Below, piece after piece: positions 18,011-36,517 of a DNA stretch of 40,342 nucleotides. The position numbers were made by a program, and so were the translations under genes. This DNA is from a virus, in the IMG/VR virus record IMGVR_UViG_3300028815_000121; one strand, given 5' to 3'. Numbering within the stretch: the stretch's first letter is position 1; each line of letters begins with the position of its first letter. The notes under the pieces are model-generated. The model saw nothing but the letters and a program-made list of their open reading frames with translations, did no database searches and was not told where the DNA came from.

Positions 18011-18626
18011 AGAAATAACAAATGATTTAGAGATTATACCGGAATATGAATTAACAAAAGAGACTGTGAAGATTATGATATGTGATGATGTAAAACGTCC
18101 TGGGGTGGATAGTCTCATGAACTGGTTAGAAAATGAGAGTGATTATTTTGTATGTCCAGCTTCTTCCAGAGGTAGACATGGATCTCGATTCGGAGGATTA
18201 ATGCTTCACGGTCTGTCAGTATTTAAAAATTTGTATGATCTTAACAGACGAAAAGAATTAGGTTTAAGAAGAAGCAGTATGGTTGTTATGGGATTATTCC
18301 ATGACATCTGTAAAGCTAATTCTTATCAGTGGGAAGATAAATGGGTAAAAGTTGATGGAGAGTGGAAACTTCAGAAGAAAGTTGTATACAGTGGAGATTT
18401 TCCTTGTGGTCATGGGGAGAAATCAGTTATAATCCTTCAGAAGTTTATTCCACTTACAGATCCAGAGATTATGGCTATTAGATGGCATATGGGGTGGTTA
18501 GACCAAGGAGTTCATGGATATCCAGGACAACACAATTATAATGCTGCTAAAAAACAGTATATTGAAATTGGTGCTCTTATGATAGCTGATATTGAAGCTG
18601 CTGCTATAGATGAGTTTGATAACTGA
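18003..18626 (+). CDS. HD-domain phosphohydrolase
   Basis: H...HD...D pattern: LMLHGLSVF, GLFHDICKA, IRWHMGW, ALMIADIEAAAIDE. Confidence 0.65.
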   Translation: MIKEITNDLEIIPEYELTKETVKIMICDDVKRPGVDSLMNWLENESDYFVCPASSRGRHGSRFGGLMLHGLSVFKNLYDLNRRKELGLRRSSMVVMGLFHDICKANSYQWEDKWVKVDGEWKLQKKVVYSGDFPCGHGEKSVIILQKFIPLTDPEIMAIRWHMGWLDQGVHGYPGQHNYNAAKKQYIEIGALMIADIEAAAIDEFDN

Positions 18627-18664
18627 AGATTTTTTTACTATATGCCGATATAATAAATAGGGGG
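18624..18664 (+). promoter_or_regulatory. bipartite conserved upstream element, copy 1
   Basis: TGAAG-N14-TGCCGATATAATAAATAGGGGG, ending 5 nt before GTG 18670. Confidence 0.55.
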
Positions 18665-18669
18665 TTAGA

Positions 18670-19335
18670 GTGAGGATTTTAATAAGTGGAGGTATTGGAA
18701 TTGGAAAAAGTACCTTCTGTGATAGACTAAACAAAGAATTTGGCTACCCAATTCACAAGACGGGTAGACATGCAAATAATATTGAGCATTTTTCTTTTGG
18801 GCTTAGACAGTCTTTTATGGAACTGTTAAGCTTGGAAGCTATGTTTGATACCAAATATCATAATTGTGTTTTAGATAGATGGTTAATAGATTTTCTAATG
18901 TGGCAATATGAGGATGAATCTTTTAACGTGGGAGAGTTGCTTGATCGAATAGCTCTTGATGCTATAGATAAAGACTCTGATGTGTTTTTAGTTTCTCCTA
19001 ATCCACCTTTGAATTTTTATTTGGATAATATTAACGATTTTAGAGGTGACTACATTAGGTGGTCTGCATTTAGTGATAAATATATTGCTTATCTCAGGGA
19101 GAAATATAATGGGGATACTCCTCATCATATCTTAGATACAGAGGTTTTAAGCTTTATAAAAGATTGGACTGATAATCTTATTGATTTTACTGTCAGTTGG
19201 TTAAAGATGAATGAACTTAACTATATCTATGTAGAGCTATCTGATGTTGGAGACTTAAATTGGAGACAAGTTTGGCAAGATGCCTATATGGATAGGTTAA
19301 GGAGTGTTATTAATGAAACGGGCAGAGTTGATTAA
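18670..19335 (+). CDS. P-loop nucleoside/nucleotide (or polynucleotide) kinase
   Basis: Walker A ISGGIGIGKSTF at N-terminus, dNK/dNMP-kinase-like layout with DRW (ERS-like) motif. Substrate cannot be assigned from sequence. Confidence 0.6.
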   Translation: MRILISGGIGIGKSTFCDRLNKEFGYPIHKTGRHANNIEHFSFGLRQSFMELLSLEAMFDTKYHNCVLDRWLIDFLMWQYEDESFNVGELLDRIALDAIDKDSDVFLVSPNPPLNFYLDNINDFRGDYIRWSAFSDKYIAYLREKYNGDTPHHILDTEVLSFIKDWTDNLIDFTVSWLKMNELNYIYVELSDVGDLNWRQVWQDAYMDRLRSVINETGRVD

Positions 19336-19582
19336 AAAGATTGGAGAAATTGTTGAGGATATAAGCTCTACCCTGGATGAAAAAAGGTCAAGACAGTATA
19401 TTAGTCAAATAACAAATGATAAACTGGATTCTCAAGCTAAACATGAGTTAATAAGTAGACTTGCAGAGATTGATATCTCTTTAGAAGATGCTATGTATGA
19501 GCTTGAGGATGCTCTTGAAGATAGACCAGATAATGAAGAGTTGAATGAACTTCTTTCATTTTTGGATTATTATTATGATTGA
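19313..19582 (+). CDS. hypothetical acidic coiled-coil protein
   Basis: Start moved to ATG 19313 (MKRAEL), 7 nt after AAGGAGTG. Confidence 0.45.
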   Translation: MKRAELIKKIGEIVEDISSTLDEKRSRQYISQITNDKLDSQAKHELISRLAEIDISLEDAMYELEDALEDRPDNEELNELLSFLDYYYD

Positions 19583-19682
19583 TAATATTTTATTTAGTAT
19601 TTTTATAATAGTTGCTCCATGTATATTAGTTTATGTATTTATATGGACATTTAAACAGGCTAAGAAGGAATCTAAGAAGTAA
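19575..19682 (+). CDS. candidate 35-aa single-pass membrane peptide (MIDNILFSIFIIVAPCILVYVFIWTFKQAKKESKK)
   Basis: Untracked small ORF. Hydrophobic core plus basic tail; its TAA overlaps ATG 19683 (TAAATG) and its start overlaps upstream stop by 8 nt. Confidence 0.3.
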   Translation: MIDNILFSIFIIVAPCILVYVFIWTFKQAKKESKK

Positions 19683-35015: not shown

Positions 35016-35212
35016 TGCTTATTGAATTGACCTGGAAAGATTATATTAGGTATTCTATTATGACTATAGGTCTGGAAATAATTTTCTTCATGGAGTTCAT
35101 GACAGATATCCTTGAGAAATATTTTCCACATACTTATATAAGATATGAGAGATATATGAAAGAGGTGGATAGAAAGCACCATGAGAAAAGCAGAACCAAA
35201 GCTATTAAGTAA
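35015..35212 (+). CDS. candidate small protein (65 aa)
   Basis: ATG overlapping upstream stop; overlaps next ORF by 32 nt. Confidence 0.3.
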   Translation: MLIELTWKDYIRYSIMTIGLEIIFFMEFMTDILEKYFPHTYIRYERYMKEVDRKHHEKSRTKAIK

Positions 35213-35876
35213 ATTTATTGAAGAGTGTATAAAAATCCTCATGAGAAGTGGGGACATGCCTGTAGCAGTATTAGACCCTGATGGTTGGGGATACTTTGCT
35301 CATGCTTACCCTGTGCCTGAAGAATGGTATATTAATGGGGGATATTATGTAGCCCTTGAGGGTGGATATCCTTATGATTTTAAGCATTCAAAGGTTTATG
35401 ATGAAGGTGGTCTGGGGCATAAAAATCCTGCTGTAGAACATGATCTTGTTTGTAAGATTTACACTAATTATCCTGCTGGGACTGAGGGAACTTTTGAAGG
35501 AAGAGCTATTATGGATGTTGCCAGGGAACATGATCGTGCAGAGGTAGAATATTACAGACAAATTTTAAGTAAGGAAACAGGGTATATAAAAATACCTATA
35601 TCTAAGAGGGAGTTAGCTGATCTTGTCCAGTTAGAGAGAAAGTATTATAATGGGGATACTTGGAGATTGAAACAACATAATAAAATTTGTGGCCCCCGAT
35701 ATGAGAAAGATAAATTAGCCCTTTGGACTAAAGACCTCATAGATATCTTAGGATCTAAAATTATAGTTGACAATGCTATACCTCTTTTTATGGAATTAGT
35801 TATTGAAGAAGATACTTTAGATGATGGATTATTTTTGAGAGTTCAAGTTAGAGGGTTAGATAATGAACAAGATTAA
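35181..35876 (+). CDS. hypothetical protein
   Basis: Long ORF with protein-like composition; no motif. Confidence 0.45.
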   Translation: MRKAEPKLLSKFIEECIKILMRSGDMPVAVLDPDGWGYFAHAYPVPEEWYINGGYYVALEGGYPYDFKHSKVYDEGGLGHKNPAVEHDLVCKIYTNYPAGTEGTFEGRAIMDVAREHDRAEVEYYRQILSKETGYIKIPISKRELADLVQLERKYYNGDTWRLKQHNKICGPRYEKDKLALWTKDLIDILGSKIIVDNAIPLFMELVIEEDTLDDGLFLRVQVRGLDNEQD

Positions 35877-36282
35877 TGCTCTTAAGGAATTAGAAGATAT
35901 TTATCAAGAAGGCCAAGATCCTTATTTTGATGGATATCTACAGGAACCTTTAAATATGTCTACATATCATTTGGTAAAAAATTTTATTATGTACACTCTT
36001 CCAGGAGATTTACCTGATCCAGATATTTCTATAGAACCTAATGGGACAATAGATTTAGAATGGTATTGTGAATCCACTCGTGATTTTGTGTGCTTATGTA
36101 TGTTTCATACTATGGTTGATGAATACCCATATAAAATCAGTATTTTTTATAGGTTGGATGATGTATATAACACTATAATATTTGATCTTAATGAACCTTA
36201 TCCAGTTTGTTTGATGTGGAAATCAATGAAACATTTGATAGACCATTTAACTGCTCTTGTAAATGATCTTTTTGGGAGTTAG
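35863..36282 (+). CDS. hypothetical protein
   Basis: Overlaps upstream gene by 14 nt. Confidence 0.45.
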   Translation: MNKINALKELEDIYQEGQDPYFDGYLQEPLNMSTYHLVKNFIMYTLPGDLPDPDISIEPNGTIDLEWYCESTRDFVCLCMFHTMVDEYPYKISIFYRLDDVYNTIIFDLNEPYPVCLMWKSMKHLIDHLTALVNDLFGS

Positions 36283-36294
36283 GGGGAAATAATT

Positions 36295-36495
36295 ATGTCA
36301 AACACTACGTTTCAAGTTAAATGTGATAAATGTGGTCAGCCCTGGTTGGTCACTATGTATGAAGAGACTATTATTGATAGATGTCCTTGCTGCTCGGCTT
36401 TATATGAGTTTATAGTAAAGATTGAGAAAACAAAAATCTCAGAAAAGTGTGATGATAAAGTTTGGGAGAAATTTATTGAAGAAAATCAGGATTAA
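36295..36495 (+). CDS. small zinc-ribbon protein
   Basis: CDKCGQPW...CPCCSA; GGGGGAAATAATTATG SD-start. Confidence 0.45.
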   Translation: MSNTTFQVKCDKCGQPWLVTMYEETIIDRCPCCSALYEFIVKIEKTKISEKCDDKVWEKFIEENQD

Positions 36496-36517
36496 TGCCG
36501 ATAAGTAAATAGGGAGG
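36477..36517 (+). promoter_or_regulatory. bipartite conserved upstream element, copy 4 (TGAAG half lies in the 3' end of the preceding ORF)
   Basis: TGAAG-N14-TGCCGATAAGTAAATAGGGAGG, 5 nt before ATG 36523. Confidence 0.55.

Follow-up and report, generated by a model that had tools for sequence, protein, structure and literature searches.

Internal promoters scattered through long one-direction arrays of early and middle genes are a feature of phage T4, and promoters read by phage sigma factors (gp28 and gp33/34 of Bacillus phage SPO1, the sigma of phiEco32) place a phage-specific bipartite consensus, different from the housekeeping one, before groups of genes, in SPO1 AGGAGA/TTTNTTT for the middle and CGTTAGA/GATATT for the late promoters. 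In bacteria, promoters of the sigma-28 (FliA/SigD) family front flagellar, chemotaxis and autolysin genes. Their consensus has been given as TAAAGTTT-N11-GCCGATAA for FliA (PMC7286023), as TAAA-N15-GCCGAWAA-N4-+1 for RpoF of Escherichia coli and as TAAA-N15-GCCGATAT for SigD of Bacillus subtilis (PMC2532724), flaB2 of Treponema carries TTAA at -35 and CCGATAA at -10 (PMC9481697), and intragenic copies were reported for E. coli FliA (PMC4183435). The viral record IMGVR_UViG_3300028815_000121, analyzed here over its full 40,342 nucleotides (nt) and hereafter called the window, harbors four copies of a short element, TGAAG-N14-TRCCGATA, just upstream of start codons. Promoters of some sigma-dependent class are very probably what these copies represent, and the more specific reading that they are sigma-28-like promoters with minimal leaders is the one we prefer, at a probability of roughly 0.55.

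The repeated element

An exact pattern search returned TGAAG-N14-TRCCGATA at 18624, 28464, 30442 and 36477, always on the + strand, against a mean of 0.00 matches expected from 100 dinucleotide-preserving shuffles; the four copies reported in a preliminary description of this DNA were thus confirmed both by direct reading and by the search. In the window the element takes the form TGAAG(T/A)TT-N12-(G/A)CCGATA(A/T), and each copy is followed by a Shine-Dalgarno (SD) sequence:

18624..18669, + strand: putative promoter copy 1, -35-like TGAAGATT at 18624-18631, -10-like T-GCCGATAT at 18643-18651, SD GGGGG at 18660-18664, GTG start at 18670; full sequence TGAAGATTTTTTTACTATATGCCGATATAATAAATAGGGGGTTAGAGTG
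28428..28463, + strand: intrinsic terminator (ranked first in the terminator scan as 28428-28453), 11-bp stem (AAGGGTCTGGG/CCCAGACCCTT), T-rich tail
28464..28509, + strand: putative promoter copy 2, -35-like TGAAGTTT at 28464-28471, -10-like T-ACCGATAA at 28483-28491, SD TAAGGAGG at 28497-28504, ATG start at 28510; full sequence TGAAGTTTTTTTGGGAAAATACCGATAAGTAATTAAGGAGGGGATTATG
30442..30491, + strand: putative promoter copy 3, -35-like TGAAGTTT at 30442-30449, -10-like T-GCCGATAT at 30461-30469, SD TAAGGAGG at 30476-30483, ATG start at 30492; full sequence TGAAGTTTTTTTATCAACTTGCCGATATAATAATTAAGGAGGTAGAAAACATG
36477..36522, + strand: putative promoter copy 4, -35-like TGAAGAAA at 36477-36484, -10-like T-GCCGATAA at 36496-36504, SD GGGAGG at 36512-36517, ATG start at 36523; full sequence TGAAGAAAATCAGGATTAATGCCGATAAGTAAATAGGGAGGAAATTATG

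The downstream octamers agree with the E. coli and B. subtilis -10 consensus at 7-8 of 8 positions, and the upstream octamers of copies 1 to 4 agree with TAAAGTTT at 6, 7, 7 and 4 of 8 positions, respectively; this near-match of both blocks to the sigma-28/FliA/SigD consensus had not been mentioned in the preliminary description. When the window was scored with a position weight matrix made from eight copies (window and relatives), its four sites reached 30-41 bits and the next-best position 8; this gap, together with the exact search, indicates that the motif family is sharply bounded and has no weak members in the window. When up to two mismatches were allowed, seven matches were found where 1.4 were expected, the three additional ones being poor. 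Counting the relatives described below, the spacer measured 14 nt in 14 of 14 sites (9 of 9 for copies of the TGAAG type, hereafter class A), its letters being free, and CCGATA was unchanged in all 14.

The window contains about 69 open reading frames (ORFs), all on the + strand, and its intergenic DNA amounts to only about 880 nt (2.2%). The expectation that the motif would be enriched upstream of genes was borne out by a scan of the window, as the CCGATA boxes of all four copies are intergenic, on the coding strand, and none of them falls in a coding region. They precede the start codons (18670, 28510, 30492 and 36523) by 19, 19, 23 and 19 nt. The upstream blocks of copies 1 and 4 overlap the 3' end of the preceding ORF: the TGA of the -35-like block of copy 1 doubles as the stop codon of the gene at 18003-18626, and that of copy 4 lies within the 3' end of a 66-amino-acid ORF (36295-36495). 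Copy 2 starts one base after the end of the tail of the terminator listed above, which is the top-ranked terminator-like site in the window and closes the gene of an 816-amino-acid protein. A promoter directly behind a terminator is what one classically finds where two transcription units meet.

Several details of the preliminary description had to be revised. The hexamer CCGATA, said to occur only four times, is found six times in the window, the two occurrences out of motif context being at 35696 (+), within an ORF, and at 32543 (-). A run of seven T directly after TGAAG, described for three copies, is present in copies 2 and 3, while in copy 1 an extra A intervenes; similarly, the second sequence said to take the place of TATAAT in two copies was found as TAAGTAAT in copy 2 only, copy 4 having TAAGTAAA. 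The downstream TAAWTA-GGAGG part, previously drawn in one register, does not keep a fixed register with CCGATA, since copies 1 and 3 have one base more between the two than copies 2 and 4, and the distance from GGAGG (GGGGG in copy 1) to the start codon is 5-8 nt instead of 3-8.

In the mechanism that we propose, T(G/A)CCGATA(A/T) would act as the -10 element, the hallmark of the sigma-28 family, and TGAAG(A/T)TT, one base off TAAAGTTT, as the -35 element. An RNA polymerase carrying a sigma factor of this family, either the flagellar sigma of the host or a phage-encoded relative located outside the window, would bind there. Transcription would start about 5-8 nt after the -10 element, at the 5' edge of TA(A/G)GGAGG; it is the published N4 rule that places the predicted start in the A/T stretch just before this sequence and yields mRNA leaders of about 12-18 nt. 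Promoters of this kind would re-initiate or boost transcription inside a 40-kb one-direction gene array with almost no intergenic space.

Occurrence in related contigs

The closest relative is a 64.8-kb Logan contig, represented by loci L002 and L019, which is syntenic with positions 223-30438 of the window at 50-72% amino-acid identity. A complete copy at L002:8905 (TGAAGATTTTTTAGTAAAATACCGATAAATAAATATAGGAG...GTG) fronts an unrelated ORF of 85 amino acids. The exact core TGAAG-N14-TGCCGATAT (also given as TGCCGATA) was in addition found at L002:816-842, inside an ORF and with no ribosome-binding site (RBS) after it; from base frequencies, about 2e-4 such cores are estimated to occur by chance in the L002 locus. 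The kinase and Rnl1 homologues of this relative carry no motif and have no intergenic gap, abutting the preceding genes.

Between 5217 and 8841, locus L019 contains five sites of a second type (class B; 5217, 5626, 7122, 8275 and 8815), which share the box T(G/T)CCGATA and have, in the exact register of TGAAG, a YGATY followed by an A run (YGATYAAAA). All five are intergenic and front small ORFs in the early region, immediately to the right of a divergent junction, in a part of the contig upstream of the point where the window begins. The two blocks are therefore modular: a different upstream block can stand with an unchanged downstream block. The junction itself (L019:4500-5260) is a 770-nt AT-rich divergent intergenic region that contains a number of long perfect hairpins, the stem of one of them measuring 17 bp, and separates leftward genes, including that of an intein-containing 981-amino-acid protein, from the rightward early genes; the region may represent a set of bidirectional terminators or an origin.

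A pattern scan of JGI metagenomes returned eight loci, and only one of them, L008, held multiple copies. This phage-like contig carries genes for a dCMP deaminase and a SprT-like protein besides many small ORFs, and has three class A copies, each fronting an ORF (the SprT-like gene and two unknown genes). By tblastx it shared no coding sequence with any other locus, only the promoter-like stretch, and it may either belong to the lineage of the window phage or be a different phage that infects its host. In three related copies (L008, L019) the leader extends to 28-50 nt, so that an RBS cannot be counted as an obligate component. The single sites at L009-L015 had no flagellar gene that we could find downstream and are compatible with chance.

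Further searches returned little. Near-identity comparison of 13 kb of the window with INPHARED phages gave no match, and the topoisomerase protein was at most 35% identical to those of cultured phages, the best being Rhizobium phages. IMG/VR gave no match either to the Rnl1 protein or to the full class A pattern, and one unrelated site to a pattern of -10 plus SD. When a 49-nt copy was compared with phages by BLAST, only marginal matches to Vibrio phages (E >= 0.02) appeared, which we judged to be chance. A scan of GTDB genomes returned seven single sites, two of which (L023 and L024) have a sigma-28-like TTAAG upstream and are considered below; the remaining ones look like chance, among them a site preceding grpE (L022).

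The degenerate fifth copy formerly placed at 13098 does not belong to the family, since its CCCGAA lies three bases out of register and its matrix score is below 8. The 7-bp hairpin described near it (CTATACC/GGTATAG) is real, yet separate from the motif. This hairpin, in the + strand stretch 13045-13135 (CGGGTATAG ... CTATACCCG-aaca-GGTATAG), abuts the SD of the gene at 13149, and a 9-nt complement about 60 nt upstream, within the end of a NUDIX gene, makes two alternative pairings possible. The arrangement is not conserved at the equivalent place of the relative (L019:20581-20624).

Promoter class

With sigma-28 promoters the phage element shares the -10 octamer (G/A)CCGATA(A/T), a partial likeness of the -35 in its T-AAG plus T run (TGAAGTTT vs. 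TAAAGTTT), a spacer of fixed length and the existence of intragenic copies. Two sites in bacterial metagenome-assembled genomes (MAGs), at L023:7513-7575 and L024:176-225, read TTAAG-N15-GCCGATA(A/T) with a short leader to TAAGGAGG, their spacing exceeding the consensus by one base just as in the phage. One, in a Lachnoclostridium MAG, precedes an ORF with a weak FliD_C match and the other a LysM coiled-coil protein; their resemblance to genuine sigma-28/SigD promoters is suggestive only.

A number of observations weigh against the assignment to sigma-28. In the -35 block the second A of the consensus is always replaced by G, and the spacer is always N12 (N16 after TGAA) in the 9 of 9 class A copies, 1 nt over the consensus of E. 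coli and B. subtilis. Sigma-28 promoters may tolerate plus or minus 1 in spacer length, and the second -35 position varies between taxa, as Treponema uses TTAA. The upstream box of class B, YGATYAAAA, is unlike a sigma-28 -35 element, and a single sigma reading both classes would therefore not be a textbook sigma-28. A Pfam search found no homologue of a sigma factor, AsiA or MotA among the approximately 69 ORFs of the window, and no sigma or activator was recognized among ten unknown proteins compared with PHROGs or four compared with PDB sequences. The contigs of the window (43 kb) and of the relative (65 kb) are both partial. Loci with helicase homologues at 40-44% identity (L016, L017, L018, L020 and L029) lack the motif. 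The FliD_C match in the bacterial MAG is under the Pfam cut-off, and the upstream neighbors in L023 are not flagellar genes. Moreover, unlike the bacterial promoters with their flagellar, chemotaxis and autolysin genes, the phage sites front genes of replication, nucleotide and RNA-repair type, their predicted leader is cut down to the SD, and in the relative they have a sister class with an unrelated -35 box.

Loci of other large phages with Rnl1 homologues (L003-L007) are not syntenic with the window and lack the motif. In one of them, an unrelated large phage-like contig (L004:18659 / L005:9533, - strand), we observed once TAAAG...-ACCGATAA (TAAA-N16-ACCGATAA) immediately upstream of a gene that has a strong SD, another possible candidate for a sigma-28-type phage promoter.

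The best-surviving alternative, although we consider it unlikely, is that the elements are promoters outside the sigma-28 family, read either by a divergent phage sigma (ECF-like or unrelated) or by the host RNA polymerase with a phage activator. In the activator version a phage protein would bind the TGAAG box as MotA/AsiA do in T4, with YGATYAAAA boxes early, TGAAGWTT boxes in the middle phase and a shared -10. Two alternative upstream boxes in one register over a common downstream box do follow the T4 early/middle logic, and it is in this common -10 with a differing upstream block at a fixed position, as well as in internal promoters scattered through a long one-direction array, that the T4 system resembles this phage lineage. 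The differences are that the -10 of the phage motif is not sigma-70-like, and that the window has neither a MotA box nor, by Pfam, any ORF matching MotA, AsiA or a sigma factor. Extracytoplasmic function (ECF) sigma promoters begin their -35 with TGAA and have a 16-nt gap to a -10 starting with CG; the consensus of sigma-W in B. subtilis is TGAAAC-N16-CGTATA, a geometry equal to the TGAAGW-N16-CGATA of the phage. Their hallmarks AAC and CGT are nevertheless absent, and the match is much poorer than that to sigma-28. Phage sigma promoters such as those of SPO1 differ in their consensus sequences, and no sigma gene was found in the 40-kb window. The -35 and the spacer, which do not match sigma-28 exactly, speak for this alternative, as do the approximately 42%-identity helicase relatives, which use another intergenic motif, as would fit a fast-evolving phage-specific recognition. 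Against it, the -10 of the four window copies matches GCCGATA(A/T) at 7-8 of 8 positions with CCGATA invariant in 14 of 14 sites, an agreement that would be unlikely to arise by chance with an unrelated sigma.

The other motif, (C)ATTATATATATTAAAT, is shared by L016-L018 (helicase about 42-44% identical), lies just after stop codons and is absent from the window; it may be a promoter or another signal of a sister clade:

L016:7904, 16903; L017:5248; L018:11715, 21574: intergenic (C)ATTATATATATTAAAT sites

Some known classes were considered and rejected. A sigma-70 promoter had previously been thought incompatible with the 20 nt from TGAAG to TATAAT, a distance that we confirmed for copies 1 and 3; the hexamer at 17-nt spacing (CGATAW) is a poor -10, and a sigma-70 scan stayed at chance level. 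For an extended -10 (TGn) the TG is in the wrong place. T4 middle promoters combine a sigma-70 -10 (TAnnnT) with a MotA box, TGCTTtA, near -30. Such a promoter was dismissed because neither a legal sigma-70 pair, nor a MotA box, nor a MotA/AsiA Pfam match in the window ORFs was found. An ECF promoter was set aside as all copies have AAG and CGA in place of AAC (-35) and CGT (-10). Finally, a T4-type late promoter has TATAAATA at -10 and no -35, while none of the four copies contains TATAAATA (the closest sequences being AATAAATA in copy 1 and AAGTAAATA in copy 4) and an upstream block is present at a fixed distance.

As an extension of the sigma-28 assignment, it is conceivable, although doubtful, that this phage lineage runs both early and middle transcription from a sigma-28-type CCGATA -10, with two interchangeable -35 modules as a temporal switch. 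YGATYAAAA may then serve the early small-gene region and TGAAGWTT the genes further downstream. Such a phage could exploit the flagellar sigma of its host and be expressed only in motile cells, as in a flagellum-dependent phage, or it could have a sigma-28-like factor of its own, together with a partner re-targeting region 4.

Signals other than promoters

The layout of the element is that of a promoter: two short conserved blocks at constant distance, with a spacer of variable sequence, on one strand and upstream of genes. Of the two options left in the preliminary description, a phage-specific promoter gains support from the fixed spacing, the placement, the adjacency to a terminator, the RBS-less core and the swapped upstream box. 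A binding site for a phage DNA-binding regulator (a repressor or activator operator), or some other DNA signal that is not a promoter, would likewise produce a bipartite DNA motif of fixed geometry immediately upstream of genes. We regard this as very improbable, given that the blocks are neither palindromic nor direct repeats, unlike most operator half-sites, that the 27-100 nt gaps contain no other promoter-like sequence (a sigma-70-type scan being at chance level) and that the blocks coincide with a known sigma consensus.

The other option concerned the RNA. RNAalifold predicted 0 base pairs over nine copies, and the fold z-scores of the four single window copies relative to shuffled sequences were -0.21, +1.13, -0.43 and +0.14; the element is not an RNA structure. 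As TA(A/G)GGRG also stands before motif-less genes, e.g., those at 223 and 37972, TA(A/G)GGAGG represents the general RBS context (an extended SD). The least credible alternative of all is an RNA-level element of the 5' leader, for instance a site of nuclease processing or a translational operator fused to the RBS: the motif does abut the SD in most copies, the TAAWTA-RGGAGG stretch is conserved, and polycistronic RNA from a long one-direction gene array would cross the sites, but consensus pairs are lacking and folding energy is no better than shuffled, two short blocks with 14 unconserved nt of constant length between them are typical of sigma factor-DNA recognition, one copy of the core lies within an ORF and lacks an RBS, other copies have leaders of 28-50 nt, copy 2 lies downstream of a terminator, so that little read-through RNA would carry it, and the TA(A/G)GGRG part is general RBS context.

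Genes downstream of the element

In the window the element fronts the following genes:

18670..19335, + strand: 221-amino-acid P-loop NTPase or kinase-like protein, first gene after copy 1
28510..29637, + strand: T4 Rnl1-type RNA ligase (RNA_lig_T4_1, E = 2e-16), first gene after copy 2
30492..30758, + strand: 88-amino-acid protein with two CxxC pairs and no family match, first gene after copy 3
30770-31387, + strand: lysozyme-like gene, next after the 88-amino-acid CxxC gene
36523..37956, + strand: CCA-adding enzyme or poly(A) polymerase family protein with HD domain, first gene after copy 4

The Pfam matches of the 221-amino-acid protein (AAA_28, dNK) are all under the curated cut-offs. A co-regulated regulon of RNA repair and nucleotide metabolism had been suggested from these neighbors. 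It was not upheld by the relative, whose kinase and Rnl1 homologues have no motif and in which the motif fronts other genes; since the fronted genes differ among the window (P-loop, Rnl1, CxxC with lysozyme-like, CCA-adding), the relative and L008, a conserved RNA-repair regulon is unsupported. The positions of the putative promoters turn over between relatives, and the elements resemble a set of internal promoters distributed over an extended array of genes.

That a phage genome repeats a promoter consensus is in itself to be expected. If the sigma-28-like reading is confirmed, it would provide a ready-made transcription map, with promoters, boundaries of units and very short leaders, of an uncultured phage lineage whose cultured relatives reach no more than about 35% protein identity. 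It would also add a phage example of sigma-28-type promoter recognition, none having been found in the literature searched, and would restrict the possible hosts to bacteria possessing a FliA/SigD-type sigma, or else imply that a phage sigma awaits discovery. With its two classes of sites, the relative would serve as a simple model of -35 module exchange over a constant -10.

Gene content of the window

By function, the encoded proteins belong to replication and to the nucleotide and RNA metabolism of a large phage. Replication and DNA metabolism are represented by helicases, a DnaB-like protein, RusA, a flap endonuclease, both topoisomerase II subunits and a Toprim primase, nucleotide metabolism by NUDIX and thymidylate-synthase-like genes, and RNA repair by the Rnl1 RNA ligase and the CCA-adding enzyme; a phosphatase, a DnaJ-like protein and the lysozyme complete the list, and no tRNA gene was found in the window.

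The 816-amino-acid protein closed by the terminator (25959-28409, +) has a strong match to the shoulder domain of the Major Vault Protein (E = 4e-27) and weaker ones to Vault_3 and SPFH/Band_7, which is unusual for a phage, and the syntenic relative has no homologue of it at the equivalent position in L002. The DnaJ-like protein (31736-32431, +) combines a J domain with a CXXCXGXG zinc-finger region. Two adjacent genes on the + strand encode a CoaE dephospho-CoA kinase (21618-22250, E = 8e-26) and a cytidylyltransferase-like protein, possibly a CoaD (22186-22734, E = 1e-20); should the second enzyme be of the CoaD type, the phage would encode both final steps in the synthesis of coenzyme A.

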